The position numbers were made by a program, and so were the translations under genes. Shown here piece by piece: positions 6,831 through 55,805 of a stretch of DNA of 64,000 nt. Positions within the stretch are counted from its first letter, which is position 1, and each line of letters starts with the position of its first letter. The stretch spans positions 5,394,001-5,458,000 of the forward strand of contig NC_091475.1 in NCBI RefSeq assembly GCF_036971445.1. The letters run 5' to 3'. The stretch comes from Narcine bancroftii. Taxonomy: Eukaryota. The notes beneath the pieces were generated by a model. The model worked only from the letters and a program-made list of their open reading frames with translations, ran no database searches and was not told where the DNA came from.

Positions 6831-6943
6831 ATTAAGGTTAATTTGATATTAGTCATCCTAATATTGGATATGGGAATTTATTAGAAAAAATAGGATAGGA
6901 TAAACCATAATTTTGAAAGATGTTGGTTAATCAAAGACACAAT

Positions 6944-7128
6944 AGATTTGTCAAGGGAAGATTTGTCAAAGGAAGATTTGTCAAGGGAAGATTTGTCAAG
7001 GGAAGATTTGTCGAGGGAAGATTTGTCAAGGGAAGATTTGTCAAGGGAAGATTTGTCAAGGGAAGATTTGTTGAGGGAAGATTTGTCAAGGGAAGATTTG
7101 TCAAGGGAAGATTTGTCAAGGGAAGATT
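6944..7128. repeat. 15-bp minisatellite (AGATTTGTCAAGGGA) x about 12, inside a decayed CR1 RT fragment
   Basis: Direct tandem units are visible; they translate to FVKGR repeats, and the flanks read as CR1 RT sequence. Confidence 0.95.
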
Positions 7129-7539
7129 GCATATGACTGATTTTTTTTGAGAAGTTAACAAGAATGATGGTGTATTTGACAGAGTCACTATAGATCTTCT
7201 CTTATGGGATCCAAGAGAAATTGGTATTTGGAGTACAAATTTGGCTCAGAATATTAGTAAACAATATGTAGTGTGGTTCTGCATGGCTCATTGCTTTTCC
7301 CCTGGTGTTCTTGATATATGTTAATGATTTGCCTTAAATAAAGGAATCCTGATAAAGAAGTTTGCCAACTACATCAAATTGGACATTGTGGTAAATGGTG
7401 TGGAAGAAACTTAGGCTGTAAAAGATGACCAGGGGACCTAGAATGATGTAATTGATAGAAGAATATTGAGGAGTTGGGGAAAATTATTTCCACACTGTCA
7501 GTAGTGGGGCTCTGGAGCTCATTGCATGAAAGATACAGG

Positions 7540-11420: not shown

Positions 11421-11747
11421 TTATCCCTCATGACACAAGTTAGATTGGTCCGAGGTTTTTTGTGATGTACCCAATGGCTTTCCTGTGTAATCTTTTTTAA
11501 TTACCAGATATGTTTGACCCATTTAAAAATGTTAGTGGCTTTTACTTCCATGCCTGTTTGAATATTCTTCCCAAAGAACTTTTACCCTGGATAATTTTAC
11601 GTTTTCTTGCAGCATATGTATGCTGTGTAGAAATGGTCATGACTTGGGACTTTGGCTCGAGGAACTTCAGTGAGCAGGGGCTAAGAAGGAGCTCCTTGTG
11701 TGGAAAGGTATCTTTGAAATAACATATTTATAGTAAGAAAGGAGGAA

Positions 11748-12664
11748 ATGGAGTCAGTTGGGGTAGTTAAGTGCTCCAATTGTAGGATGTGGGAAGTCGG
11801 AGACAGCACAGCTGTTCCTCACGACTACACCTGCAAAAGGTGCCTCCAATTGCATATAATGAGTGACCGTGTTAGGGAGCTTGAGCTGCAATTGGATGAA
11901 CTGAGGATCATAAGGGAAGCAGAGGCAATGATAGAGAAGAGTTACAGGGAGACAGTCACCCCTAGAAGGCAGGAGTCAGGGAATTGGGTGACTGTGAGGA
12001 AAGGAGGGAGAGTGCCTGTGCAGAGTACCCCTGTGGAAGTGCCACTCAGCAACATGTATTCGGCATTGGATACTTATGTGGGGAACAGCCTAACAGGGAC
12101 GAGTCGTGGGGGTCAGGTCTCTGGCACAGGGGCTGCCCCTGAGGTTCAGAAGGGAAGGGGGGATAAGAACAGGACTCATTAGTCAGAGGGACAGATAGAA
12201 GGTTTGTGGGACGAGATCGGGGATCCAGGTTGGTCTGTTGCCTCCCTGGTGCCAGGGTCAGGGATATCTCTGATCGAGTTCATAGCATTCTGCAAGGGGA
12301 AGGAGAACAGCCAGAAGTCGTGGTCCATGTGGGGACCAATGACTTAGCTAGAAGTGGGGATGAGGTCCTGAAACAGGATTATGTAGAATTGGGTAGGAAG
12401 TTAAAAAACAGGACCTCCAAGGTAGTAATCTCTGGATTGCTGCCCGTGCCACACGCTAGTGAGGGTAGAAATAGGAGGGTGTGGAGGATGAATGCGTGGC
12501 TAAAGAGATGGTGCAGGGGGCAGGGGACAAGATTTCTGGATCATTGGGATCTCTTCTGGGGAAGGTCGGACCTGTACAAAAGGGATGGACTCCACTTGAA
12601 CTGGAGGGGGACCAATGTGCTGGCAAGCAGATTTGCTAGAGCTGTGGGGGAAGGTTTAAACTAG
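11748..12664 (+). pseudogene. CR1 ORF1 (CxxC..CxxC zinc finger, coiled coil, SGNH esterase); frameshifted near 12170
   Basis: CSNC..CKRC, VRELELQLDEL, (G)DSLVRG at 12173, HVGTND, DGLH; split over ORFs 11748..12182 and 12206..12664. Confidence 0.9.
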
Positions 12665-12690
12665 TTTGGCAGGGGGGTGGGGAACAGAGT

Positions 12691-15542
12691 GTGAGTGCAG
12701 TGTCAAGGGAGCATGGCCACCTAGATAGGAATAATATCGATAACAAAGGTAGGATGAAGATTAGGGTAAAAGGTAGAAAAGAGAATATAGGTGAGGGTCA
12801 TTCTCTGAAATGCATATATTTTAATGCAAGAAGCATAGTGAACAAGGTAGATGAGCTTAGAGCATGGACAGATAGTTGGGGTCATGATATTGTGGCAATT
12901 AGTGAGACCTGGCTACAGGAGGGGCAGGACTGGCAACTTAATATTCCAGGATACATTTGTTTTAGATGTGATAGAGCAGGGGGTAAAAAAGGGGGAGGAG
13001 TTGCTCTGCTTGTTAAGGAGGACATTACTGCCGTGAGGTGGCAGGATGGTCTGGAGGGATCGTCCAGTGAGGCTGTTTGGGTGGAATTGAGGGGTGAAGG
13101 AGGCATGAGGGTGCTAATAGGGGTGTATTACAGACCACCAAATGGGCCAAGAAAATTAGAGGAACAAATGTGTAGGGAGATAATGTATATGTGTGAGAAT
13201 CATAAGGTAGTGATCATGGGAGATTTTAACTTCCCTCACATTGATTGGGATACCCATACAGTTAGAGGGCTGGATGGGCTAGAGTTCATTAAATGTGTTC
13301 AAGATTGTTTTCTAAATCAATTAGTAGAAGAACCGACTCGGGACGGTGTAATACTAGATCTCCTGTTAGGGAATGAGTTAGGTCAGGTATCGGACATTAA
13401 TGTTGGAGAACAAATTGGGTCTAGTGATCATAACTCTGTTTTAGGGAAGAGCAAGGAGGGGCCTAAAGTTGAGGTTCTGGATTGGAGAAGAGCAAATTTC
13501 GAAGGAATAAGAAGGGATTTGGGGAGTATTGAGTGGGACAGGATATTTTCAGGTAAGGATGTAAATGAAAAATGGAGGATATTCAAAAAAGAAATTTTGA
13601 GGGTACAGAGTAGATATGTCCCAGTGAGGATCAAAGGAAAGGCTGGAAGTCATAGGGAGGCTTGGTTTTCGAGGAATATTGGAAATTTGGTTAGGAGAAA
13701 AAGGGAGGTGTACAAGAGGTATAAAGAGCAGGGAGCTGAGAGTTTGAAGGAGGACTACAAGGAGTGTAGAAGGAATCAAGAAAGAAATTAGAAAGGCCAA
13801 AAAAAGGCATGAAGAGGCTTTGGCAGACAGAGTAAAAATAAATCCAAAGGGTTTCTATAGGTACATTAAAAGTAAAAGATTAGTGAGGGATAAAATTGGA
13901 CCCCTTGTAGATAGCGAAGGTAGGCTGAGTGAGAAGTCAGAGGAAATGGGGGAAATTTTGAATGATTTCTTTGCCTCGGTATTCACTAGGGAAAAAAAAT
14001 ATTGAACCAGTTGAAGTAAAGAAAAATAGTGGGGAGGTCATGAAGCATATAAGGATAACCGAGGAGGTAGTGATGGCTGTGTTGAAAAAGATAAAGGTGG
14101 ATAAATCTCCGGGACCGGACAAAATATTCCCAAGGACACTCAGGGAAGCTTGTGGACAGATAGTGGGGCCATTAACAGAGATATTTAGGATGTCACTGGT
14201 CACGGGGGTAGTGCCAAAGGATTGGAGGGTGGCGCATGTGGCTCCGCTGTTTAAGAAAGGGTCCAAATGTAAACCTGGAAATTATAGGCCCGTGAGTCTG
14301 ACGTCTGTGGTGGGTAAGTTGATGGAAAGTGTTCTGAGGGATGGTATTTACAAATTTTTGGAGGTACAGGGATTGATAGGGAGTAATCAGCATGGTTTTG
14401 TCAGGGGTAGATCATGCTTGACAAACCTGATTGAGTTTTTCGAGGGGGTTACAAAAAAGGTTGATGAAGGGAAAGCTGTGGATGTTGTCTATTTAGACTT
14501 TAGTAAAGCTTTTGACAAAGTTCCCCACAGGAGGTTAGGAAAAAATATGGAGGCATTAGGTATAAATAAAGAGGTAGTGAAATGGATTCAGCAATGGTTG
14601 GATGGGAGGTGTCAGAGAGTAGTGGTAGAAAATTGTTTGTCCAATTGGAGGCCAGTGACTAGTGGAGTTCCTCAGGGATCGGTCCTGGGTCCACTATTGT
14701 TTGTTATATATATTAACGATCTGGAAGTAGGGGTGGAGAATTGGATAAGCAAGTTTGCGGATGATACAAAGATTGGTGGTGTTGTGGACAGTGAGGAAGA
14801 TTACCGTTGATTAAAAGGTGATTTAGGAAGGCTGGAGGTGTGGGCTGAGAAATGGCTGATGGAATTTAATACAGATAAGTGTGAGGTGTTACAGTTTGGA
14901 AAGGCAAATCTAAATAGGCCATATGCATTAAATGGTCGGCTATTGAGATGTGCAGAGCAACAAAGGGATTTAGGAGTGATGGTAAATAGTACCCTCAAGG
15001 CTGATACTCAGGTAGATGGTGTGGTGAAGAAGGCATTTGGAACGTTGGCCTTCATAAATCGGAGTATTGAATTCAAGAGTAGGGAGGTTATGATGAAATT
15101 GTACAAGGCACTGGTGAGGCCAAATTTGGAGTACTGTGTACAGTTTTGGTCACCAAATTTTAGGAAAGATATAAACAAAATAGAGAGAGTACAGAGAAGG
15201 TTCATGAGAATGTTGACAGGATTTCAAGGTTTGAGTTACAGGGAAAGGTTGTGCAAACTGGGGCTATTTTCTCTGGAGCGTAGAAGATTGAGAGGGGACT
15301 TGATAGAGGTGTTTAAGATTTTAAAAGGGACAGACAGAGTAAACGTGGATAGGCTTTTTCAATTAAGAGTGGGGGAGATTCAAACTAGAGGGTATGGTTT
15401 AAGATTGAATGGGGAAAATTATAAGGGGAACATGAGGGGAAATTTCTTTACGCAAAGGGTGGTGGGGATGTGGAATGAGCTTCTGACAGACGTGGTCGAG
15501 GCGGGATCATTGGTTACATTTAAGGAAAGACTGGATAGTTAA
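12691..15542 (+). pseudogene. CR1 ORF2 (AP endonuclease plus reverse transcriptase), with 2 frameshifts and 1 stop
   Basis: [43 protein letters not shown]. Breaks near 13775 and 13995 (A-run) and TGA at 14808-14810. Confidence 0.93.
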
Positions 15543-18399: not shown

Positions 18400-21300
18400 A
18401 TTATGTAAATTTCAGCCCGTAATTTTTCCAACGGCACCCCAATGACCATCTAAAATGACCGCAGCCACTCTGCAAGAAATGGGCCTAATGAATACAACTT
18501 TCCCAATGATGTGCTGTTATGCGCGATGAACCGTTCAGCTCGTGATGTCAACGGGTGCTGTCCCACAATGGCCAGAGTGATAGTGGGCATGAAGATTGGC
18601 CTTATTTAGATCTCTGTTGGCACATCTGAGGCACCCGCCACTTTGTGCGACCCAAAACTCTGATGAGCAGCAGGGAGGATGCAACACCACCCCAAGAGGG
18701 TCTGGACCTCCGACCTCCACAGGCGGCATGCCTGAATCTGAGCAATTGAGTGACAGAGAAGCAGACGCCAGCCATGGGGGGGTGGGGGGTGGAGGGGAGG
18801 TCCTTCGCACCAGCAGGATTCAGGTAAAACCTTTTTATCCATGTGCCTGTCCTTAAGCAGCTACATGTGGACACATGTGGTGACGTGAAATTGTTTGTGT
18901 CTGCCCTCCATCAATCTCATGTTCAGATAACACCTACTGCTTTATAAAGGTGAACAGCAGCTATGTTCAGTCAGCTACCACGTGCTGTATTAGATCAGTA
19001 AGCAACAACTGCATTAAGACAGCACATGCTCCACTTTAATGGATGCGGCACCATTTTTAACTGTATGAGACTCTCTCCTGCAGCAAGGCAGCACGTCCTC
19101 CATCGGGTTGGTTTGCAAGTGCTTTAGTTATGCAATGATAAGCTGTGGTCATGCAGTTAGTTCTTCTTTGGATATTTGGGCAGCAGCTACAGTCACGTGG
19201 CAGCTCTCCTTTTGATCAATCTTACTGACGGGCATTGTGTTCCAATCCCTAATAGCGCGGAAGTGGCCTAGGAAAAGAGCATGACCAACCAAGGCCAGGA
19301 TAATATGTCAAGAGCGTTGTGACAAGCTACAATCAATGGACCATGAAGAGGTGGAGAGGCGCCACGTTCAGTAGGTGAACGTCACCATGCGGAGGAGACC
19401 GGAGGGTTTTCAAACATGTTTGAAAGACTGGAAAGGGAGAAGCATATGCAAACTGGCATCACGAGCGAGGTGGCGGGCTTGCTATCAATCCCCATCTCAG
19501 ACAATCAACTTCCTGTACCACCCCCCCCCCAACAAAATATAACCCTCACCAACCCCAGAGCCAGATTTCCTTTCATTCCCCATGTCGTGGACCTGTAATG
19601 TAGCACCTTGACGTGGCGTTCAAGTCCATTCAAGAACCTCCCTCCTCATGCTACCCTGGACCATTCCAGTAACGTGATTGCGAGAACCATGTTCACATTA
19701 GTATTTATAATGTGAGCTTTTGCGTGTTTTGCACAGTTTTGCACACACGACTACAGCCTAACATGCAGATCCATTGGGATTCACAAAGTGCAAAGCTTGA
19801 AACTGTGGTAAACCACTCTGTATATTTAGCTGTCTGGACACACCCCTTGGGCCAACTGTACCTGTGGCTCCTCCCACAGACTCCTGAATAAAGGTGACCG
19901 TCCCACAGTGCCCTCCCCAGTTCAGGACAGTCGACCAGCATGGACGTACCTCCATTCTATTGCTAATAAAAGCCTATCACTTTTACATAGCTTCTACTTC
20001 TGGAGTTATTGATGATGCATCAATTTTATTAGCAATAAATGTTGATAATGGAGCAGATCCTAAAACCTGAGAAGTTGGAAATCGACCCACGGTCATCTAA
20101 AGCCTCCAACAACATTGAACTGTTGCTTCGAAGCGTTTCTGCAGACATCATCAGAGAACGACAAGCTGCAGGTACTACATTCCCCAGTCAAGCCCCTGGT
20201 GTATTCAATGATCAGTGACGCCAAGTCATATGAAGAGGCAATGGACATCCTGAAAGGCCTGTACCTGAGGATGGTAAATGAGGTATTCACGAGACACCTC
20301 CTGGCTACCCAGAAACAGTGACCTGGGGAATTGAGTGCTGAGTACCTCCAGGCCCTGCGAGCTCTTGGACGGTGCTGCAACTGCAAGGCTATGACACCCA
20401 CGGTGAACATGGAGGACCAGATCAGAGATGCTTATGTCAAGGGCATCAGGAGCAAGGCGAGCTCAGCTTGTGAAAGGCAGTCAAACTGGCAGGCACACCA
20501 GAGATGGCCCTCCAGAATATTGAAGCCTACTTGGCAAACAACAAGGCCGCTGCCTTGGGATGTGGGAGGGCCACAGCCCCGCAGAACACCACCACCACCA
20601 CGTCCCGCCAACGATCTGACCATGGCCATTGTACTCCGTGAGCACCTAACACCACTACTGCCACATCCCACCAGCGGCCCAACCACGGCCGTCGTACTCC
20701 GTGATCACCCAAAGTGCTACTTTTGTGGCCTGAACAAGCACTTGAGGAAACGCTGCCTGGTGAAAGATGCGGTTTGCTCTAACTGTGAGTAGAAAGGACA
20801 TTACATGAAGGGGTGCATGTTGAAGTCTCCCCAACCAAGCAGCACTGCATGCGGGCCGTGGGGACTGACATTTTTGACACCTCCATCTTCGAAATCTAGC
20901 AGTGCTGCATGAGAGCCATGGGGTCCCCCATCTTGGACACCATCATTTTGGGACCGCACACCCGAACACTCTACCACATCTACAGACTCCGATCCAAAAC
21001 TGGCCTCCATCATGCTGGATCAACTCACCAGATCAATGATGGACATCCAGGTAAACAGCCATGTGTTGAGCTGCCTGTTCGATCATGGGAGCTCAGAGAG
21101 CTTCATCCACCCCAACACGGTGTGGCATTACTCCCTGGTGATAAGGCCAGTAAGCCACAAAGTCTCTTTGGTATTGAAGTCCCATACGGCTGATGTCTGC
21201 AGCTACTGTGTAATGACTCTGACCGTGTGGGGCACAGACCTGGTGATGTCACAGCTCTGCATTGCCATGCTGCTGGGGCTAGACTTTCAATGCATACTTA

Positions 21301-24300
21301 AAAGTGTGACGATGGAGTACAACAGGCCCCAACAACCCCCACTGTCAGTAACAAGCAGTTTTTAAACTGGCCACTGCGGTCCACCAGGAAAACCCACCCC
21401 GCGGCCACTTCCCCCCACCATTTCCAGCCAGCAACCTGAAGATTGCCCATTGCACACGACCTGTGGGCTCTCAACTCTCTCGATCACCCCTCCAGCATTG
21501 TTCGCTAACCTCACCCCCGACTGTAAACCTGTTGCCACCAAAGGTAGGCGGTACAGTGCCGGGGACAGGGTCATTGGAGGTGGTGAAGCAGCTACTCAAT
21601 GAGGGGATCATTGAAGCCAGCACCAGCCCCTGGAGAGCCCAAGGGGTGGTGGTGAAGAATGGGGAGAAAAACAGAATGGTCATCGACTACAGTCTGACCA
21701 TTAACAGATACATGCAGCTGGACGTGTACCCTCTTCCCCACATACCTGCTAGGTAAACCAAATCACTCAATATCGGGATTTCTCCACCATTGATCTTAAG
21801 CCAGCTTACCACCAGCTCCCCATCTGCCCGGAGGACCGCCAATATACTGGTTTTGAGGCAGCTGGCCACCTCTACCATTTCCTGAGGGTCCCCTTCAGCA
21901 TCAACAACAGGTAGTCAGTCTTCCAGTGGGAGATGGACGGGATGGTAGACCAGTACAAGATGCAGACCGCATTCCCATATCAGGACAACGTCATCATTTA
22001 CGGCCATGACCTGCAGGATTACGATACCAACCTCCAAAAATTCCTAAGATGTTTGCAGTGGCAGACCAGACCATCTGAAAGACTTGATTTGTAATAACAC
22101 CTAATTCACTTCACCCTGGCGGACTCTTTCAAAAACAAGGGGTGAATGTGGTAAAGCACTGTATATATGATTAGCTGTCTGGACACATCCCTTTGGCCGA
22201 CTGTACCTGTGGCTCCTCTCATGGACTCCCAAATAAAGGTGACCGTCCCACAGCCCCCTCCCCAGTTCAGGACAGTCGACCAGCATTGATGTGTCTCCAT
22301 TCTATTGCTAATAAAAGCCTATCACTTTTACATAACTTCCAGTCTTTTAGAGTGCTGCAACATGCCGCAATGAGCATCATTATTTGCAAACAAGTGGCTC
22401 CTGTGATGTGGACTCTCAATGAAAATGTTTAATTAAAATCATTGTGAAAATGGTATATCGCAAGTGAACCCTTCTGTTACATTGAAAGCACTGCAGGATC
22501 AAATCACGTTCTTACATAAAATCTCTTCCTACAAAGCTGACACAATCACCTCCCGTGCTTCGTGGGCACTATGGCGAGTTACTCCCAGAAAGGGAAGACG
22601 CTCAGGTGCCTCAGGGTGATCTCGTTGACAGTTGCACCACCAGTACTCCTTGTTGATCACACAGACGCTGTGAAGAACACAGCAGGCCACGACAACTTCT
22701 GGTATCAACCCACTGAGTGACCTTTTAGACGTCCGAACGCATGTTCCACAATGACCTTTGTGCTGTTCAAATGTTTGTTGTGGTGATGGTGATGCTGGCT
22801 GAGGGCTTCACGGTGGGTGAAACCCTTCATCAACCACCTCCTCAATGGATAAGCTGGTCTCCGATTAGATGCACAGGTATCTCCACCCCATTTACAATTT
22901 GTGATTTCTGTTGGCATTAACAGTGAACAATTATCAGTGTCTCATTCAGCCCATGAAAATGAGTGCTTTAGCTCTCCTCACGTGGCCAGAGGTACCCTCC
23001 TTGTCCCTCAGCCTTTCTGTAGAGGGGGCAGTTCACTAAGATGCAAGCATCGTGTGTGTGTCCAGGCCATCCCACATACACATCTATGAAGCTGGAACAA
23101 CCACAGATCTGTGCTTATAAAGGCATTAGGCTCACAAACCATTATACATAGTGCAACACAAAGCTTTATACTTACCAGTAACTGTGATCGGCAACTGTCT
23201 GCAAGACAATTGAGTGCCATCCTTTCCTATTGTAGTCATCACTGGGTGCTCTGACAGGAATACGAGTACCATCAATCCCACCACCACACATTGGATAATG
23301 CCTTTCTGCAAATCCGTCGAGTGTCTCCTGCAGTTCAGATGAATTAAACATTGCAACTTGGCCCCTCTAAGTGCTCCAGTCACCTGGCATACCACCACGC
23401 AGACAATGGCCACTCCTATACTGAAAATAACACTAATGGATCGATATTCACATGGTGTCACTTACCACCACAAAGCGAGTCTAAAACGGGAACCCAGAGG
23501 TTGCACCTGAGGTCCAGCTCAATGAGCCTTAACATAAAAGCAAAGGTACCCCGAGACATATGAAAATGAGCCTTCATCGTCATCAAAATTGTTTGGGACA
23601 TCAAGCCAGAATACAGGCCAACTTTCTCTCTCTTTCCTCCATGTTGTTCTCTGCGACATTAGTGCATTTTGACTCACAATAAAGTCATGTCTCCCAATCA
23701 AAGTGCTCCCCTTCTCTCCACCCATTTTCCTGTAATGCATTTTGTCTCACGTGGTTTTCTTCCTTGCACGTGCACAACCCGCATCTCCGCACCATGAAAG
23801 AACGCTTGAAACTAAATAGCTACCCCCTTCGCAAAGGTCTGAAAATCTGGAGTCATTCCCTCTTCTTTCCTGAGGATCTTTTGGCTGCAGGATTCTGAGG
23901 TCACTTAGGACATCCATGTGGTGACCATGTCCATCAGACGTACATTGCACGTCCGCGTTGATGTCCACCCATGTTTGTCCGCCCACGTACACAGAAATTT
24001 TGGAATTATTCCGAAAAAAATTAGCATACTTACCTCCAATGTGTCCCAATCTGGTCGTTTACACAGGGGCACTTTTACACAGCCTTTCTGTGTGGCGGAG
24101 TTGATTGAAGGGAGAACGTCGTATTCATTAGGCTTGGAGTGGTTGCAGTCAATCTACAGTGCAGCTGCTCTGTAAAAATGTGTAGGGGTCCAAGTGGAAA
24201 AATTATGGGATGGAATTTGCATTATAAATTCCTTTGTGACATTTTTACACTTCCACCAAAGCAGAAACTTTCCTGAAATGTTCTGCTGTTCAGTGACTGT

Positions 24301-26271: not shown

Positions 26272-26610
26272 CTGTAGAAAGGAATAACTTATTATAATAA
26301 ATATCTTTGCAATTAATTACTAATATCAAGCCCATGGAAAACCAGGAATTTAAACAAGGGGAAGCAACCTAAGAGAGAATCTTAAGTTGATGGGAACATG
26401 TCAAGGCAATATTCAAGGAAAGAACAGAAGCTTATCTTGGTGAAACTATAGATGCAGAAGGATAGACATCGTTCGAGAAAGTGTGATTACTGGGGCTAGT
26501 AAACCAGAAATGGCCAAGTGATAGGAGAAGTCCGCAGCGTGCAAGTGTAAATGGGAAGAGCTGAGGAAACAAATGACACAAGAGAAGCATGACAAACAAT
26601 TCACCTCAAT

Positions 26611-27345
26611 TCTGCTGATGCCCAGCGCTCACTGCAGACTACATCTGCTGATCCCCAGTGCTCGCTGCAGCCTACATCTGCTGGTGCCCAGTGCTCGCTG
26701 CAACCTACATCTGCTGGTGCCCAGCGCTCACTGCAGACTACATCTGCTGATCCCCAGTGCTCGCTGCAGCCTACATCTGCTGGTGCCCAGTGCTCGCTGC
26801 AACCTACATCTGCTGGTGCCCAGTGCTCACTGCAACCTACATCTGCTGATGCCCAGCGCTCACTGCAGACTACATCTGCTGATCCCCAGTGCTCGCTGCA
26901 GCCTACATCTGCTGGTGCCCAGTGCTCGCTGCAACCTACATCTGCTGGTGCCCAGTGCTCGCTGCAACCTACATCTGCTGGTGCCCAGTGCTCGCTGCAA
27001 CCTACATCTGCTGGTGCCCAGTGCTTGCTGCAGGCTACATCTGCTGGTGCCCAGTGCTCGCTGCAGCCTACATCTGCTGGTGCCCAGTGCTCGCTGCAGC
27101 CTACATCTGCTGGTGCCCAGTGCTTGCTGCAGGCTACATCTGCTGGTGCCCAGTGCTCGCTGCAGCCTACATCTGCTGATCCCCAGTGCTCGCTGCAGCC
27201 TTCATCTGCTGGTGCCCAGTGCTCGCTGCAGCCTACATCTGCTGGTGCCCAGTGCTTGCTGCAGGCTACATCTGCTGGTGCCCAGTGCTCGCTGCAGCCT
27301 ACATCTGCTGATCCCCAGCGCTCGCTGCAACCTACATCTGCTGGT
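26611..27345. repeat. 33-bp minisatellite (CTACATCTGCTGGTGCCCAGTGCTCGCTGCARC) x about 22 in the intron between NXPE3 coding exons 1 and 2
   Basis: Tandem units are directly visible and give 11-aa periodic ORFs (LHLLVPSARCS on plus, ADVGCSEHWAP on minus). Confidence 0.97.
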
Positions 27346-28209
27346 TTGTTACTCTCAAAATTAATATGTGAATAGATATTTCTTTCCCCCCACCGCCCCA
27401 CCCCGCTCACAACCCTGCCAAGATTCTTTAAGCAATTTTCATTCATCCCAATTCATTTTATATGGCCAGATCTGAAATATTCCATTCCCTAGTTGGTTCC
27501 ACAAAATATTATACTTTCCATATTTACCAACTGATTTAATCCACAAAAAGACTAAAGTCACACACCATTATTGCAGTACCTTTTCCACCTGCAACTATCA
27601 GTGCTAGATCTATGCTCTGTCCTCAAGGGACCCATAGACCATTCTCACCAGGAACTTTATCCATTTTCTATTTCTTATTGGCACTCAGTGATTCAATGTT
27701 TTTGATCTTCCAAATTAAACATCATTTCTCACGACTGCTTTATCATATTTTATTGATAGAAATTAAGTGATAGAAATCTCCAACTTGTATGTTTTTGTGA
27801 AGTCACCCAGCCTTTGCCACCCAACAACCCTGTTTCTGTAATGTCTATTGATTTACATTTATCTATGACTATTTAAACCAGTAATTCAATTATATCTGAT
27901 TACAAATTTTGATCTTTTACTATTTTTCTTCATCTACACACCAGTAATCTCAATCTGATAACTAAGCAGCCAAATAAATGATTAAAGAATTCTCATAGAC
28001 AGGAAATAAGGAAAAATAAAAAAGCTAAAATTTGAAATATTTTACAGCAACATTTGATGAAAAAAATAACATTTTAAGATGTGAAAGCAGTTGTATGATT
28101 AACTGGAAATTCAATGCCAAGTCACCAGAAATGTTACATGACTATTCTTGACATGTCAAGTCTTAATTCATGTATCTACTTCTTTTGGGCCTAGTGTTTC
28201 ATTACATAC

Positions 28210-42889: not shown

Positions 42890-43153
42890 TGTTACATAGT
42901 GGAAACTTGGGACTATTTTATGCAGTAACTGAAGCACTGCTCGACTGCAAGAGCCACATCACACTTGAGGGTGAGCATGCTCAGTGAGACACATTGTAAG
43001 AGCCCAATCACACTGAGTGGTGAGCATACTCAGTGCAACAGTGTATTCATACATGATTGGCAGCCTGAGATGTGAGTAAAATTTGTGCTGTAAACTTACA
43101 AGCTTCTCTGAGTGTTTATTAAAACCTCCGATAGTACAACCGAGGACATAACA

Positions 43154-43172
43154 TGGTGGCAGCGGTGGGATT
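43154..43172 (+). other. Primer-binding site complementary to the tRNA-Leu 3' end
   Basis: tggtggcagcggtgggatt directly after the LTR is the complement of ...AATCCCACCGCTGCCA-CCA of vertebrate tRNA-Leu(AAG/UAG type), recalled from memory. Confidence 0.8.
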
Positions 43173-43425
43173 GACAGAAACCCACATCAGATAAGAAAAA
43201 AAACCCTATAAACTAAAATAAATACGAAGAGAAGAAACAAAGGAAAGAAGCAGCATTACCTGACGACCAGAGCTGGAGAAGAAGATGGCCGCAGCAGCAT
43301 TACACCCAGTCATGGACTGGGAAGCTCACGATGTCATAAAGGTTTTGAAAAAGGTCAAGCTGAAGTTCAACCTGGCATTCAAAAGTCTCCTCAAGGGAAT
43401 CACACCAGAGGAAAAGGTTAGGTAC

Positions 43426-45285
43426 TGTGTTGGTACACCTCCGGCCTACTGCAGGGGGCAACACCTGTACCTGCAGGAGTGTAAGGGATCAGGCCCCACC
43501 CAGCCGGGTGTCAATCACCCTCCAGGATAGAAGCCTGCTCCGGCCTCCCGAAGCTCACTCAGAGTTACTGCAGCTACAGCCAGCCTGGCTCTGTGGAAGT
43601 ATTTGTAGATTAAAGCCTGTTGAACAGTCTTTATCTTGTGTGTGTCTGATTCTGGCTAACAGCGCACCACAATTTAATCCACAAAATTTTCCCACGGCTG
43701 CCATGGAAAAATTCCTGAGCGCAGGGAGCCATGAAGTCGACCCACGCCACCTGGAAGCCCAGACACACTTCAAGAGCTGGCAGCACACAATCGAGGCAAT
43801 CATCGAGGCACACTCAGATCGGAAGAGGTTGGTCCTACTCTGTTCAAAGCTGGGTCCCCACGCCCACAAAGGCTGCTCCACGTACAAGAGGGCAATAGAC
43901 ACTCTCGAGAACTTGTACAAGCCCTCCATGAATGCAGTCTGTGCAAGGTACCTCCTCAACACCCGAGCCCAGCAACCCGGGGTGACAGCTGAGTCTTACC
44001 TGGGACACCTGCAAGAGTTGGCCTGACCGTGTCTGGCTGAATCCAGGGTAGGTGCAGAGGAGGTCGAGAGGCTGATCCGGGATGCCTTTGTCCGAGGGCT
44101 ACGCTCGAGGGCCATTCAGCAGAAACTGCTGGAAGGCAATATCGACATCCTAACCAAGACAGTGGAAGTGGTCCAGACCCTGGAAGCGGCAGCCCTGCAC
44201 ATCGAAGCCTTTGATTCCAGGTTCCCCCAGGCTCCCTCATAGCCCTCTCACACTGCAGCTGCAGCCCTAGACCGAGCTGGGGAGGTAAACATCGCTGCGG
44301 CAGGCACCCAGCATCCCTGTAAGTACTGTGGGTCCTGGTGTAGGTCAGACCGACGATCGCGCCAAACCTGCCCAGCTGGGGACCAGTATTGTTCCCAATG
44401 CGGCAAGAAAGGCTACTTCACTAAGTGTGCCTCTCAAAACCAGCCGGCAGCTCAGCGGCCCTCTATGATCTATCCACCTCCCTCCACGTGCGCATGCTGG
44501 GCGGCGCCATTGTTCCCGCTATGACTTCCGCCTTCCCTGACCTTGACGTTGCAACATCCGGCTCCGCCAGTGACTGTCGCAGCGTGTGCCCCGAGCACCT
44601 GGACCAGCCCCCGCCCTCACCAGCGCTGCTCGCCGAGAACTACAGCGACGTCACTTCCGGCTGACATAATGACGTCACTGCCGCTGGCCGCGATGATGTC
44701 ACTTCCCCCGGTGCAATGAACACGGCTGGGGAAGGAGGCCAGCCACACAGTGAGCCCTCACGTGCCGCTGCCATCTTAGGCCAGGCAGTGGCCGACACGG
44801 AAGGCCCCCAACAATGTTGAGAATGATGTGGACGACACAGGCGGTGATGAGGCCGCCCTACCAATGCTAACCACGCCTCCGGATGCCATCGGCTAACGCA
44901 CGCTGCACCCCACAACCAATGTTGACATGGTCAACACAGGCGATGACCAGGCCTCCCTACCCACGCTCCCCACATCTCCGGATGCCATAAATTGCTGCAC
45001 ACAACCGAAGAGCGATGACTCCGATTCCAAGACGGTCCTGACCAGGGACGTCCCTCCCGACCTCAGGCACTGTATGATGGATTTGCAAGTCAACAGGCAG
45101 GTAATGAAGTGCCTGTTCGACAGTGGCAGCATCGAGAGCTTCATTCACCTGAGCGTGGCCCACTCCCTGAGATTAAAAGTCCACCCCACCACCTGCTCGA
45201 TTCTCATCGCCGCCAAGGATAAGACTGTTGATACTCTCGGGTACTGCTCAGCCAATATAACTGTGGGAGGGGAAACTAAACCAGA
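43426..45285 (+). mobile_element. Nested Gypsy fragment (LTR 43426-43671, gag, protease), related to the element at 19804
   Basis: gag MEKFLSAGSHEVDP..ARYLLNTRAQQPG, knuckle CKYCG..CP..CSQCGKKG, protease CLFDSGSIESFIH. Confidence 0.9.
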
Positions 45286-46646
45286 TTAAAGAAGAAACCA
45301 CAAAGGATGAAGAGCTCCAGCTGATCTCCCAATAGGTGATACAGAGATGGCCAGAAAGGATAAAACAGGTACAGCCTACAATACGTCAGTATTGGGCTAT
45401 CAGGGATGACATATCCCTGGAGAATGGGGTACTGCTGGCAGGGTCTCAGCTGATAATACCAGAGACAATGAAAAAAGAAATTCTCCAGAAAATACACCAA
45501 GGCCACATGAGAATGGAGAAATGCAAACTTAGAGCAAAGTCAGCAGTTTACTGGACAGGCATGTACAAGGACATCAACAACATAGTGGCTACATGACCGG
45601 CATGCCATAAATACAGAAATACCCAACAAAAAGAAGCGATGATACCTGCGGAAATACCCGCCAGGCCATGGGATACAGTGGGAGCAGACCTGTTCACAGA
45701 AAACCAAGAATGTTATCTGATTGTGTCCTGCTACTACTCCAAATTCCCCTTCATCAGGAAAGTGAAGGACCTGAAAGCATTGACCACCACTGCGCTCTTC
45801 ACAGAACAAGGGATACCCAACAAGTGATATGTGACAATGGGACCCAATTCACATCACGTGAATTCAGAGAAATAGCTGCAGAATATGGATTTACCATCAC
45901 TACTTCATCACCACATTACCCCAAAGGCCATGGATTCACTGAGAGGCATGTACAGAAAATTAAACCCACTCTCAGAAAGTGTTGAGAAACAAAGGAAGAT
46001 CCATACCTCGCCCTTCTGTCATTGCGAGCCATGCCTTTGAGGGCTGACATGAAATCCCCAGCAGAGCTTCTGAATGGCAGAAAGTACAAGGCAACCCTGC
46101 CAAGCAAAATCCATCCACCAGACAACCAAGAGGAAACAAGAAGAAAGTTGACTAACATACAAGAGGAAAGTTGCCAACATTATAATAAACATGCACAAAC
46201 ATGACTAGAACTCTTCAGAGGGCAGCATGTGCATGTTCAAGAGGCAGAGACAAAAACCTGGAGTTCAGCAAAGATTGTTAGAGAAGCCGAGATGCCAAGG
46301 TCATACATCATAGAGACAGAATCTGATAGGCAGCTGAGACGAAACAGAATCCACATTCGCCCAACCCCAGATCTGACACGGAAAGCACCAGAAGCACCAG
46401 CAACTTCTAACAATTCAGAAACTCATGAAGGAATGCAAGTAGAAACCCCAGCCAACAACAGCATGACAACTGAACAGCTTGCAACAGAAGAACCGAGGCA
46501 AGCAACACCACCATCCACAACTGTACTAACACCACCGAAGCAAACAAACACAACAAAATCTACAAGTGGAGAAGCAACATCCTACCATCAGTGCTATACC
46601 GCTGAGAAGAATATAGAACTGCAATTGTATAATTAGAATATTTAAT

Positions 46647-49529: not shown

Positions 49530-51510
49530 AGCAGAGTGGGCTAAGTCATAGTGGGAAGGCTCAAGGGGATTCAGTGAGAAGAGGCTAAGGTGATGGTGCA
49601 ACAGTTGAGATAAGAAAGGGCCACCCTGTTTGAGGAACAAAAAGGATTCAGCAGGTCAACACAGGGAAGGGCAGGTTTTAGGTATCATATTTATTTCCTC
49701 TAGTCATAAACAGCAGGAATGGCACCCAAGACAGGAATGCTCCTCTTGCAAAATGTGGGTGGTCAGGGAAGCCAGCAGTATCCCTGACAACTTCATCGGC
49801 GAGAAGTGCATCCAGCTGCAGCTCCTGACAAGCTGAGTTAAGGAATTGGAGCCAGAGTTGGATGAACTCCGGATCGTTCGGGGGGGAAGAAGGGATGAAA
49901 GACAGGAGTTACAGGAGGAAGGTAGATGGGTGACAGTCAGGAGAGGCAAAAGGAACAGGCAGACAGTGCAGGGCACCCCTGTGGCTGTTCCCCTCAATAA
50001 CAACGTGTTGCACTGTGGTGCAACAAACAAACACAAAACTCGAGAAGACTACTACAGGCTTTAATTAACTTAAAGTAGACCACCAGGTCTGTGTAGCTTC
50101 TGGTTTCAGGTGCATGACTGGTTTAGGAAGGAGCCGGATCCAGTCTTTATACGGGCTGGTGATTGACAGCCAGCATGGTGGTGCCAGCCTACCTGCATGT
50201 ACAGTGGTGGTGCCTTGCAGTAGGCCAGTGTAGTGCTTGTATCACCACAAACAAGTATACCATTTTGGATTCTGTTGGGAGGGGCAAGCCATGGTCAGGT
50301 CTCTGACATGGAGTCTGGTCCTGTAAGAAGAGAAGGAAGGAGAAGAGGTGCCCTGTAGTGATAGGGGATTCCATAGTTACAGATAAGAGGTTCTGTGGAA
50401 GAGATCAAGTATCTGAGATGGTAGGTTGCCTCCCTTGTGCCAGGGTCCGAGATATCTCGGATCAAGTTCACAGCATTCTCAGGAGAGAGGGTGAGCAACC
50501 AGATGTTGTGGTCCGTAGGGACATGAGTAGGAAGGGCGAGGAGATCCTGCAAGGAGAGTTCAGGGAGCCAAGTGCTAGGTTGAAGGACAGGACTGGTGCT
50601 GGTGAGGTTAGAACTAAGAGGATAATGCAGCTTAACATATGGCTAAAGACCTGGTGCAGGAGGGAGGGCTTCAGCTTTCTGGATCATTAGGCTCTTCCAG
50701 GCAAGGTGGGGAACTGTTCCAATGGGACAATTTGCATCTGAACTGGAGGGGGACTAATATCCTTGTGGGTATGTTTGCTAGCGCTGCTCTAGAGGGTTTA
50801 AACTAGATTTGCAGGGGGAGGGAAACAGAGGGCCAGAGAATAGAGCAGTGGAGGACAGAAAAGATTAGGTGAAAAATGCATGCGCTGTTAGAAGTCAATG
50901 GGTTGTACATGCTGGAAATATTCTAAGGTGCATCTATTTCAATGCAAGTATTGTAGGAAAGGTGGATGAGCTTAGAACATGGATTGGCACGTGGAATTAT
51001 GACATTGTGGCCATTAGTGAAACTTGAGGGGCAGGACTGACAGCTCAATTTTGTGGGGTTTCCGTTTCATATGCAATAGAATGGGGTGGGGGGGGTAGAG
51101 AAGAAAAGAGGAGGAGTGGCATTGCTCAACAGAGAAAATAACACAGCTCTGCTCAGGTAGGATAGACCTGAGGACTCATCTACTGAGGCTATATGGGTGG
51201 AGCTGAGGAACGGGAAAGGTATGACCACACTCATCAGGATGTATTATAGACCACCCAATTGTCAACAAGAATTGAGGAGAAAATCAGCTGCAGGAAACAC
51301 AAGGTTTGGATAGTAGGAGATTTCCACATATTGACTGGGACTCCCATACTGTAAAAGAGCTGGATGGCTTGGAGTTTGTCAAATGTGTTCGGGAAAGTTT
51401 TCTTTATCAATATATAGAGGTACCAACTAGAGAGAGTGGAATACTGGATCTCCTATTAGGGATTGAGACAGGACAAGTGACAGATGTATGTGTAGGGGAG
51501 CATTTTGGTT
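49530..51510 (+). mobile_element. Decayed CR1 5' half (ORF1 zinc finger/esterase plus APE)
   Basis: CSSCKMW, VIGDSIV, CLPCARVRD, FPHIDWDSH; colinear with 11748-13420. Confidence 0.9.
50006..50249 (-). mobile_element. Solo LTR related to the 43426 LTR, inserted in CR1 ORF1
   Basis: TG..CA ends, flanks aacg/aaca; shares ggcctactgca, tgtcaatcacc and attaaagcctgt with 43426-43671. Confidence 0.8.
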
Positions 51511-51682
51511 CAGTGAGAAGATCTGAGGAAAGGAAGTCCATGGCTGTCTGGGATGTTCAACGGTGGGCCCTAGACTAATGGAACATATGAACAATGATGC
51601 TGAGAACTGATATTGGTTTCTGCTCACCAGACCTTTGATTACAATTTTAGCTTCCCTTATTCAGTCATCCAACTCTTCTATT

Positions 51683-52617
51683 CTTCTTTTCTTTGGCTTG
51701 GCTTCGCGGACGAAGATTTATGGAGGGGGTAAAAGTCCACGTCAGCTGCAGGCTCGTTTGTGGCTGACAAGTCCGATGCGGGACAGGCAGACACGGTTGC
51801 AGCGGTCGCAAGGGAAAATTGGTGGGTTGGGGTTGGGTGTTGGGTTTTTCCTCCTTTGTCTTTTGTCGGTGAGGTGGGCTCTGCGGTCTTCTTCAAAGGA
51901 GGTTGCTGCCCGCCGAACTGTGAGGCGCCAAGATGCACGGTTTGAGGCGAGATCAGCCCACTGGCGGTGGTCAATGGTGCAGGCACCAAGAGATTTCTTT
52001 AGGCAGTCCTTGTACCTTTTCTTTGTCACCTCTGTCACAGTGGCCAGTGGAGAGCTCGCCATAGAACACGATCTTGGGAAGGCGATGGTCCTCCATTCTG
52101 GAGATGTGACCCACCCAGCGCAGCTGGATCTTCAGCAGCGTGGACTCGATGCTGTCGACCTCTGCCATCTCGAGTACTTCGACGTTAGGGATGAAAGCGC
52201 TCCAATGGATGTTGAGGCTGGAGCGGAGACAACGCTGGTGGAAGCATTCTAGGAGCCGTAGGTGATGCCGGTAGAGGACCCATGATTCGGAGCCGAACAG
52301 GAGTGTGGGTATGAAAACGGCTCTGTATACGCTTATCTTTGTGAGGTTTTTCAGTTGGTTGTTTTTCCAGACTTTTTTGTGTAGTCTTCCAAAGGCGCTA
52401 TTTGCCTTGGCGAGTCTGTTGTCTATCTCGTTGTCGATCCTTGCATCCGATGAAATGGTGCAGCCGAGATAGGTAAACTGGTTGACCGTTTTGAGTTTTG
52501 TGTCCCCAATGGAGATGTTGGGGGGCTGGTAGTCATGGTGGGGAGCTGGCTGATGGAGGACCTCAGTTTTCTTCAGGCTGACTTCCAGGCCAAACATTTT
52601 GGCAGTTTCCGCAAAAG
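51683..52617 (-). mobile_element. 5'-truncated RTE-clade LINE, copy 2
   Basis: Highly similar to 31956-32885; perfect 20-bp TSD agtcatccaactcttctatt (51663-51682 and 52618-52637). Confidence 0.95.
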
Positions 52618-53944
52618 AGTCATCCAACTCTTCTATTAACCACTAGCTAACCACATGAGTTAGTGAATTCTATATCACTTACATCAGCTATAACTTAGTG
52701 GATAATACTTTCACCTCTGACTCACGTGCCACCTTGACTTGGAAACAAATCTTGCATTTAAATCTTTGAACTTCTAACAGGCTCATTTCAAACTGGAAGA
52801 GTTCATGAAAATGGTGGAAGAGTTCAAGAAAATGCTTTTCCACCAAGTTCTTAAGAGCAATTTGGGATAAACCCAAAACACCAGCCTTGCTAACATCGAC
52901 TATTTCTCAGTAAAAAAATAAAAGATGCGGTTTCATGTTCCATTCTGAGAGACTTGAGCACAAAAATCCAGTTCATTTCCACTTGCACAGAGGAGGAAGT
53001 AATTTCTCCTAGAGGTTTCCTGAGCATTGTCGAGCCACAAGTAGCATAGGAAGTTGTTATTGCTGACTGTGGGGAATATGATGAACTAATCTTCGGATAA
53101 ATTTCATTCATCACAGGAATATTGACTGAAAAATGTCTTGTGATTGGCTGATGATGAAATGCTCCACATAAAAAAAGTTATTTTGCTTCATTCTGAAAGT
53201 TTATCTGATTCATCATTGACTGAATCATCTCCTATTAATGAATCTGGGCTCATATAATCCTTATAATGAGCCACTGCAGAATATCAAGATGCACAGTTAG
53301 ACCACAAGAGTGAAAGGCAAGGAACTCCGGCTGTTATTCCGGTTGTTCTTGTGAGTTAATGTGATTCTTCTCTCCAGTGTTTCCACTTAATTCAGTACTT
53401 CATTCTGTGGAAATGTTAACTAGTCAATACAGAAAGTTATTCTCTAGTGTTGTCCAAAACCGGAACCACCAGTTTTATTTAAATAATCCAATAATCTTTT
53501 ATCTAAATGGGTTGGATCTTTAACAGTTAAAACCACATCCTGTACTAACATTCTAATTGAAGAAACAGCCTTGCAGTACTGACGTACGTACAGTCTGTGC
53601 AGTATCATGACGTGTTTTCATTCAATGACACATCCTTTGTGACTATTGCAATGCCAGCAATTATTCAACTTAATTTGTTTGGCATTGTTCAGGCTTCTCT
53701 ATCCTTATCCAATATCAATATACTGAGGCATCCTCAGATGAGTTTGTTCCTTGGATCGAAGCAGGTTGTCCAAGATTAATGTTCACGAACTGATGTTCAT
53801 TAACTCTCTACATGTCAATTGTTAAATACTTTTCTGTTTAAAAAAAATGGGTCTACATTCAAAAGCAAATTTATTTAGTTGTATGCTATGGTTGCTGGAT
53901 GCAGCAAACCTTTTCAACAGGAGAAACTCAAGTTTGTTCTTATT

Positions 53945-55805
53945 CATAGGAGATAATGCAGCTTAACACGTGACTAAGGAGATGTTGCAGAAGGGAAGGC
54001 CTCAGGTCTCTGGCTCAATGGACTCTCTTCTCAGGAAGATGGGACAGTTTGAATCTGAACTGGAGTGGGACTAATATCCTTGCAAGAAGGTTTGTTAGTA
54101 CTGCTCTGGGTGGGGGTTAAACTGGATTTGTGGGGGTTTGGGAACCAGAGTCCCAGGGTAGATAAGGGAATGGAGGAGAAAAAAGATGGTGAAGATTGCA
54201 CGTGAAACGTCAGAAGTCAATGGGTTGAACGTGGTGGAAATTTTTTCAGGTGCATCTATTTCAATGCAAAGAGTATTGAGGGAAAGGCAGAGGAGCTTAG
54301 AGCGTGGATTGACATGTGGAATTATGACATTGTGGCCATTAGTGAAATTTGGTTTCAGGAGGGACAGGACTGGCAGCTCAGTGTTCCGGGCTTCCGTTGT
54401 CTTAAACGTGATAGAGCAGGAGGGATGAAAGGGGGAGGAGTGGCATTGGTTGTCAGGGAAAATATCACTCAGACTGGACAGACCAGAGGGCATGTCTACT
54501 GAGGCTATGTGGATGGAGATGAACAGCGGGAAAGCTATGACCACACTCATGAGGTTGTATTATGAAGCCATTTTAGAGTGTTAAAAGAAGCGAATGTAAA
54601 GGTGGATATTCTCTGCCTTTACATCGCTGAACCTACCTTTATAAAAACACAGATGGTGGATGCTGGATGCAAACTCCGATCCATCTAGGGGGGTAGTCCC
54701 AGAGATGGAGCGAGTCGCTTCGCCTCATTCTGTAAATGCAATCCCGCTGAAGGTGGCTGCTTAAGGCCAGGCTGATGACATTGCAATGACATCGTCAGCC
54801 TATGACCCAGGAGCCATCGCCAGGGCTCCCACAGTGATTGGTGCTGGGGTTAGGGCTCTCTCCTGCCATTCAGAAATGTCCTCTTCCCATTCCCCCTCTG
54901 CCCCTCGCACCTATCTTTCAAAGCTTGCAGAGGGATTTAGACCAGCTGGAAAAATGGGCTGAACAATAACAGATGGAATTTAATGTGAACAAGTGTGAGG
55001 TGTTGGATCTTGAAAGGACAAACCAAGAAAGGACATACACAATAAAAGGTCGGGCACTGAGGAGGGTGGGAGTATAGAGGGATCTGGGAATACAATACAT
55101 AATTCCCTGAAAGTGGTGTCGGGTAGATAGGGTGGTAAAGAGAGCTTTTGGCCATTGGCATTCATACATCAAAGTATTGAGTACAGGAGTTGGGATGTTA
55201 TAGTAAAGTTGCAGAAGACAATGGTAAGACTAAATTTGAAGCATTGTGTGCAGTTTTGGTCACATAACTACAGGAAAGATATCAATAAGATTGAAAGAGT
55301 GCAGAGAAGATTTATTAGAATGTGGCTTGAACTTCAGGAACTGAGTTACAGGAAATGTTTAGACAGGTTAGGACTTTGTTCCCTGGAGTGTGGGGAGATT
55401 TGATAGAGGTATTTAAAATTATGAGGATAGCAGAGTAAATGTAGATAGGCTTTTTCCCACTGAGAGGAGGTGAGATACGAACCAGAGGACATGGGTTAAG
55501 GGTGAAAGGGCTTTTCAAAAATAAACCGTTGGAAGTGCCAGCGACTCACAATGTGTCATCTCCTCATTTCACTTCCCTCAGTAACTACTGCTACAGGGAG
55601 AACATGAGGCGTGTGGAGCGAGCTGCCCGCTGAAGTGGTGAATGCAGGCACAATTTTAACATTTAAGAAGAATTTGGACAGGTACATGAATGGGAGGGGC
55701 ATGGAGGGCTATGGACTGGGCACAGGTCAGTGGGACTAGACAGAATAATAGTTTTGCACAGGCTTGAAGGGCCAAAGGGCCTGTTTCTGTGCTGTAATGT
55801 TCTAG
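53945..55805 (+). mobile_element. Fragmented old CR1 (ORF1 end/APE 53945-54562; RT 3' end 54920-55805)
   Basis: WNYDIVAISEIWFQEGQDWQL; KDINKIERVQRRF; gggccaaagggcctgtttctgtgctgtaa tail. Confidence 0.85.

Follow-up and report, generated by a model that had tools for sequence, protein, structure and literature searches.

A covarying stem between the LTR and the primer position of an animal Gypsy clade is consistent with tRNA-free self-priming

To our knowledge, fission-yeast elements are the only ones for which self-primed reverse transcription has been demonstrated; beyond these it is inferred mainly for their relatives among the chromoviruses and for a single Copia lineage of plants. The primer of Tf1 is 11 nt long, and Tf1 reportedly requires a helper U5 stem, a finding attributed to Lin and Levin in 1998. 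In the accessible text of the respective papers, self-priming is described for the Tf1/sushi group and predicted for the plant elements Tcn1 and TAR (PMC6317226, PMC2864245, PMC5006619), and liberation of the self-primer by RT-mediated cleavage is reported for Tf2 and Tj1 (PMC5341516, PMC4600332). The plant predictions concern Tcn1, which is chromoviral, and the TAR elements Houba and Osr-1, which belong to Copia; they would mean that self-priming arose more than once. They were drawn from LTR-PBS complementarity, as in the elements described here, and the accessible part of that source does not mention an overlap with a poly(A) hexamer (PMC6317226).

Like Tf1 and Tf2 of Schizosaccharomyces pombe, Tj1 of S. 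japonicus and the Tf1/sushi group, the elements studied here have no primer-binding site (PBS) for a tRNA; the sequence found in its place is complementary to their own LTR. Unlike Tf1/sushi, they lack a chromodomain, encode gag-pol in one short ORF that includes a double zinc knuckle, often have the RT motif YxDN and reside in animals, from cnidarians to cartilaginous fish. Furthermore, their candidate primer comprises 13-16 nt instead of the 11 nt of Tf1, ends in AAA, usually overlaps a poly(A) hexamer and is probably internal to the transcript.

The window, i.e. the whole stretch of 64,000 nt of Narcine bancroftii DNA that was analysed, contains two of these elements, both on the forward (+) strand. 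The 5' LTR of element 1 extends from 19804 to 20022 (219 nt, TG...CA, about 90% match to the 3' LTR) and finishes with ..ATGCATCA at 20022, an end that is backed by the alignment of 30 copies. A TATA-like motif at 19887-19893, which precedes the arm end by 85 nt, may represent the promoter. The arm itself, the 5' strand of a helix termed P1, lies at 19958-19971, reads TATTGCTAATAAAA and includes AATAAA at 19965-19970. The LTR is followed by a one-base spacer, A at 20023, and by the non-tRNA PBS at 20024-20037, the 3' strand of P1, which is the exact reverse complement of the arm over 14 nt. The perfect pairing of the 14 nt that follow the LTR and a single A, as the original prediction had described it, is thereby confirmed, and the second copy of the 14-mer is present in the 3' LTR at 22303-22316. 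As also stated there, no TGG-type tRNA site follows the LTR; intact young copies of related elements have none either. Folding predicts a U5 hairpin, P2, at 19972-20017, beginning directly after the arm. The arm is treated below as a candidate self-primer with its 3' end at 19971 and a putative cut site at the 19971/19972 boundary.

Downstream, a broken gag-pol (20048-22100) was recovered by three-frame translation, encoding a gag with double zinc knuckle, a protease and a partial RT (match at 21753-22046); stops and frameshifts are spread over the three frames, and RNase H and integrase are deleted. The polypurine tract at 22131-22146 finishes with GGGGTGAA, which is also how the tract of the young family introduced below terminates, and is followed by the 3' LTR (22147-22353). 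This LTR breaks off near 22353, so that its last ~17 nt are missing, and there is no target-site duplication. The original prediction is thus slightly corrected: the 5' LTR begins at 19804, and the 3' LTR begins at 22147 and is incomplete. By these sequence features, element 1 belongs to Gypsy, is old and has lost internal parts. A search of Rfam with the interval 19700-20200 gave no match.

The longest complement of the LTR within 20 nt past its end is the 14-nt stretch itself; 5000 mononucleotide shuffles of the LTR reached 12 nt at most, hence 14 nt in 0/5000. Element 2 (43426-43685; 5' LTR 43426-43671, arm with ATTAAA 43602-43614, spacer 43672, PBS 43673-43685) has the same geometry in other letters, in agreement with what had been noted for it. 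The copy in the window carries one mismatch, and 20/30 copies of its family pair at 13/13 positions. Element 2 is nested in the gag of an older Gypsy element (window 42890-43425 and ~45500-46300), whose TGG site, at 43154, is of the normal type and whose RNase H-to-integrase remains resume beyond the point where element 2 breaks off. The window also holds tandem arrays at 26479-27471 and 6914-7168 with periods of 33 nt and 15 nt, and, at 11700-15500 and 50600-54600, decayed segments that recur and contain long open frames, which are probably LINE copies.

We then collected further copies. Similarity searches in the own genome returned 3667 and 4376 first-look candidates, and the best 30 + 30 copies were analysed; pairing at 11 or more of 13 positions was found in 27/30 copies of the first set and 30/30 of the second. 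A motif pattern fixing only the ends of the stem matched the own genome at least 1,781 times, compared with 34 matches of the reversed control, and of 97 distinct places among the first 100 pattern matches listed, 89 pair at 11/13 or better. A young family, from which 8 copies among 32 scored places were analysed, has a perfect stem of 14-15 bp, LTRs that are 99-100% identical, 5-bp duplications in 8/8 copies and a single ORF of ~1,450 codons; all 8 copies pair at 11/13 or better. Since this young family has the stem and no tRNA site, such elements have moved recently.

Ninety foreign loci came from metagenome and MAG contigs. A rule-defined junction was found in 40, 35 of which pair at 11/13 or better, and three circular contigs pair at 12, 13 and 13 of 13 positions. 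No analysable LTR-PBS junction was obtained from 47/90 loci (short contigs, or contigs without gag or LTR); by eye, L102 and L125 appear to have decayed stems, and L129 and L164 have no upstream LTR. For one locus, L092, the assignment follows the junction rule applied first, which gives 13/13; the other of the two rules gives 7. Ten GTDB bacterial bins (L171-L180) hold contigs of this animal clade, which represents host contamination. The junction rules applied to the 97 pattern matches and the 40 foreign loci demanded CA-x-TTT, and therefore these two sets could not reveal a TGG member.

In total, pairing reaches 11/13 or better in 189/205 copies. When the PBS was combined with the LTR of a foreign family, the best match attained 11/13 in 160/3000 draws (5%). 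The spacer base is A in 200/205 copies, G in 4 and T in 1, with the A partly imposed by the junction rules. Leader similarity sorted the 205 copies into 40 families, 38 of which include a copy at 10/13 or better; the single-copy families L149 and L209 reach 9/13. A conservation and covariation test of the kind that had been proposed for family members thus found the stem kept in 38/40 families, and a covarying stem initially claimed from two elements extends far beyond them.

The covariation is most directly seen at positions 6-13, which are free of search rules: 290/304 family-level cells are Watson-Crick pairs, compared with 156 +/- 8 and a maximum of 192 in 10,000 permutations. Because the permutation ignores kinship, families were also matched on the similarity of their gag, which gave 19 disjoint pairs. 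Among these, 57/71 differing positions are double Watson-Crick changes, distributed over 17/19 pairs; the remaining differences are 7 one-sided mismatches, 3 one-sided G-U pairs and 4 others. The 38 families have 37 distinct PBS 13-mers, and those of the own genome all differ from each other (17/17). For instance, L005 and L010 show changes on both strands with pairing maintained. In L016 the arm is altered and the PBS unaltered. The T run at the start of the PBS follows the A run at the arm end (3/3 or 4/4).

G-U pairs are rare. Over positions 1-13, the 16 well-sampled or young families have 206 Watson-Crick pairs, 0 G-U pairs and 2 mismatches; the corresponding numbers for all 200 copies with a stem are 2450, 34 and 116. 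G-U pairs make up 7/458 in P1 versus 18/187 in P2, a comparison biased by the use of best-pairing representatives. The perfect run measures 13-16 bp in 24/24 fully paired representatives, and the share of families with a Watson-Crick pair falls from 34/38 at position 13 to 17/38 at position 15. At the G-C pair formed by arm -10 and PBS 10, G is present in 35/38 families and the neighbouring pairs are variable. The G at arm -10 and the terminal AAA are thus kept beyond the need for pairing, which suggests recognition by a protein, something that the model leaves unexplained.

To see whether a host tRNA fits the PBS, the own-genome PBSs were compared with the 3' ends of 35 tRNA predictions of 14 types; the screen of post-LTR sequences, which had been suggested from the start, gave a match for 0/17. 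The longest PBS match anywhere inside the tRNAs was 5-8 nt for the 14 types sampled; the diversity of the PBSs speaks against priming by an internal tRNA fragment, as in half-tRNA-primed elements. The control family L190, which has a TGG site, matches tRNA-Ser over 14 nt, and seven TGG-type control copies as well as the host element of element 2 pair with their own LTR at 6-8/13 positions. TGG was not found in any of the 68 copies with a junction set by similarity or by the LTR pair. As 17 different own-genome PBSs each track their own LTR, no single host RNA fits. The TGG family L189-L193 is a young own-genome Gypsy family with a tRNA-Ser site and the unusual RT motif ISDD, which we take to be Mag-like; L194-L200, presumably Gmr1-like, form an older own-genome Gypsy group with long LTRs and an integrase match upstream of RNase H.

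The leaders share a common layout. P1 starts one base past the CA of the LTR, at the same place as the tRNA site in the TGG control family. The arm terminates in AAA, followed by (A/G)CCT, and the loop up to the LTR end measures 20-67 nt. P1 is part of the minimum-energy fold in 35/38 families, and a second helix begins at the first post-arm base in 26/38. With P1 fixed, bases +1 to +4 pair with a probability of 0.60-0.66 versus 0.35-0.37 in shuffled loops; post-arm pairing exceeds that of shuffled loops in 31/38 families (Wilcoxon p ~1e-5), and P2 is weak or absent in 7/38. Folded as a whole, the leader has only modest stability (z = -1.8, equalled by 8/200 shuffles). AATAAA or ATTAAA lies within the arm of 27/38 families, including all 17 of the own genome, 15 of which come from a pattern demanding TAAA. 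The other 11/38 families keep the stem with neither hexamer in the arm; two of these 11 have a hexamer further on, unpaired by P1. L108 and L176 likewise keep the stem without the hexamer. A TATA-like motif is located 79-96 nt before the arm end in 10/17 own-genome families, none of the 17 has one within 60 nt of the arm end, and in 21 foreign families there is no TATA-like peak. The young family is represented in contigs from four runs of a single study; they do not map transcript ends. One contig, from run X3, passes U5 and PBS as far as L182:1144, where 11 letters follow that form the reverse complement of the sequence immediately upstream of the arm. This fold-back, a self-primed junction or a library artefact, occurs, among the loose contig ends listed, in one contig and in 1/4 runs, and it was not counted as evidence.

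At the protein level, an unbroken RT query retrieved 555 proteins at E <= 1e-40, with rays, sharks, a sea anemone and an ascidian as sources among the 120 matches listed. A deep-branching member used as query added labels of a tapeworm, nematodes, crustaceans, a spider and a sea cucumber; these proteins share the RT motifs of the clade, and such members are known from proteins alone. The Pfam order PR-RT-RH-IN in 6/6 proteins, together with LTRs, a polypurine tract and 5-bp duplications in 8/8 young copies, places the elements in Ty3/Gypsy (Metaviridae). A chromodomain at the integrase C-terminus was found in 0/6 proteins scanned, and PF00385 was absent from the 120 matches listed. The closest solved relative is the Ty3 RT, at 183 bits versus 226 bits for the TGG control family, which shows, as far as such scores can tell, that the clade is not specially close to Ty3.

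In a quick RT tree, whose rows include no named reference element, a branch with SH-aLRT 98 has 83 rows on one of its sides, among them 31/32 stem-bearing ones. Seven TGG-type own-genome rows are apart, the TGG family L189-L193 is on a separate long branch, and row L278 lies outside on a very long branch. A search for a chromoviral reference in the own genome gave 16 chromodomain matches, and none of the 5 inspected has an RT. Of the first 120 proteins listed, 97 carry the catalytic RT motif YxDN in place of YxDD, and so does the young family. Stem-bearing families comprise both YLDD and YxDN types, and thus the stem seems older than the change to Asn. No relatives were found by a gag-only protein search or among viral contigs.

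Mag elements have a double zinc knuckle. With the Mag lineage, Cigr-1 and MolGy, the stem-bearing clade shares short LTRs, the double zinc knuckle and a wide animal range; unlike it, the Mag-like family of the own genome has the tRNA-Ser site and the separate branch mentioned above. MolGy1 and MolGy2 are described as large unplaced mollusc Gypsy clades in the accessible text of the mollusc survey, where PBS and primer are unmentioned, and the protein motifs of our clade are absent from its readable supplements (PMC6238403). Saci2/lennie of flatworms are likewise animal Gypsy elements with a single gag-pol; the available parts of the reports give them a tRNA-Leu PBS and 4-bp duplications (PMC4558846, PMC12471100), and identity with them was rejected, given the 5-bp duplications and the lack of a tRNA site in our clade. 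Troyka was rejected as well, as it has CG ends and 3-bp duplications according to the accessible part of its description (PMC12440569). The stem is not described in the accessible parts of PMC3601003, PMC10886601 and PMC12859917. Titles and abstracts of the open literature searched contain no description of such a stem, and the YLDN motif was not found in the open literature searched. The original prediction names 'Selfy' as a self-priming Gypsy group of Repbase; if it exists as an animal group of this kind, it may be this very clade. The name was not found in the open literature searched. As these searches covered the open literature, an earlier description in subscription journals or, for example as 'Selfy', in Repbase Reports is quite possible.

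Altogether, the stem is conserved and covarying, it is situated exactly at the primer position of elements that have no tRNA site, and these elements have been mobile recently. We regard self-priming in some form as very probable. More specifically, we assign a probability of roughly 0.65 to the reading that the stem is a tRNA-free primer site, with an internal arm that is cut from the transcript and extended by the RT of the element. The full-length RNA would fold such that arm and PBS form P1 (13-16 bp, a helix shown by the covariation), and the predicted P2 would begin with the base that follows the arm. Cleavage at the AAA/RCC boundary, where P1 meets P2, would be carried out by a nuclease, by analogy with Tf1 most likely the RNase H that the element itself encodes. 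The freed 3'-OH, opposite PBS base 1, would copy the spacer and then U5/R, and the strong-stop DNA would jump to the 3' R. In the fish families the arm is probably 35-50 nt inside the transcript and not at its 5' end, since the spacing of the TATA-like motifs puts the start 35-50 nt before the arm. When plus-strand synthesis copies the primer, the PBS would be rewritten with the sequence of the arm. Such rewriting would account for the missing G-U pairs; with the arm changed and the PBS not, L016 indicates that it would not be absolute. In arms with AAUAAA or AUUAAA, P1 would additionally mask the 5' poly(A) signal, and the 3' copy, having no partner, would stay free.

Four explanations compete with this reading. 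A stem that arose by chance, or as an artefact of local duplication in a single decayed copy, could draw on the AT-rich 14-mer and the modest leader fold, but none of the shuffled LTRs reached 14 nt and the stem is conserved and covarying over 38 families; the cross-family null, the covariation and the disjoint-pair tests refute this explanation, to which we attach practically no probability. A transcript that starts at the arm or a few bases before it, making the capped 5' end of the RNA the primer exactly as in Tf1, appears unlikely to us. Pairing halts sharply after 13-16 bp, as a 5' end would produce, an initiator-like A-N-T-Y-Y is often seen by eye before the arm, and in Tj1, according to the accessible text, the PBS is complementary to the mRNA's 5' end (PMC4600332), but the TATA-like motifs 79-96 nt before the arm end in 10/17 own-genome families, with none within 60 nt, speak against such a start. 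The arm copy in the 3' R, on the same or a co-packaged RNA, is a conceivable primer too: the arm is transcribed at both ends, is AAA-terminal and usually carries a poly(A) hexamer, and sequence cannot distinguish which copy pairs. However, the 5' copy is just 20-67 nt from the PBS, and P1 folds locally in 35/38 families. Poly(A) 3' cleavage normally occurs 10-30 nt beyond the hexamer, so that extra trimming would be needed, and we consider this origin of the primer very improbable.

Retroviral 5' poly(A) hairpins exist and provide a precedent for a stem that solely hides the 5' poly(A) signal, with some host RNA or tRNA fragment as primer. The hexamers in the arms of 27/38 families, among them all 17 of the own genome (15 by the TAAA-demanding pattern), fit this explanation, yet 11/38 families without a hexamer in the arm keep the stem, two of them with an unpaired hexamer elsewhere. 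Moreover, a fixed host RNA cannot follow 17 PBS sequences that in one genome each follow their own LTR, and a regulatory stem would be free to start elsewhere and should accept G-U pairs. We give this explanation little credence. Self-priming is the best reading because the stem begins one base after the LTR, is formed almost entirely by Watson-Crick pairs and is kept in the 11/38 families with no hexamer in the arm; hiding of the poly(A) signal would be secondary, and the cleavage and priming steps are proposed by analogy. The original prediction had offered a primer, a poly(A) switch or both; from sequence, priming is better supported, and hiding is a plausible side effect in 27/38 families, where the hexamer in the arm makes a regulatory role inseparable from priming.

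Self-priming as such is already known from the Tf1 precedent, and the possible Repbase name further limits novelty. We therefore put forward only tentatively, and with more doubt than confidence, that these elements constitute an animal-wide, non-chromoviral Gypsy clade, undescribed in print, that self-primes independently of Tf1 with a primer from mid-R at a fixed two-helix junction. If true, this would be an independent origin of self-priming with a different RNA anatomy, an internal primer over the poly(A) signal. The clade is large, given at least 1,781 motif matches in the own genome and proteins across many animal groups, and it is missed by LTR finders that require a tRNA PBS. Its young families offer material for testing how primers are cut out of transcripts, and a self-priming clade would evade tRNA-fragment control.
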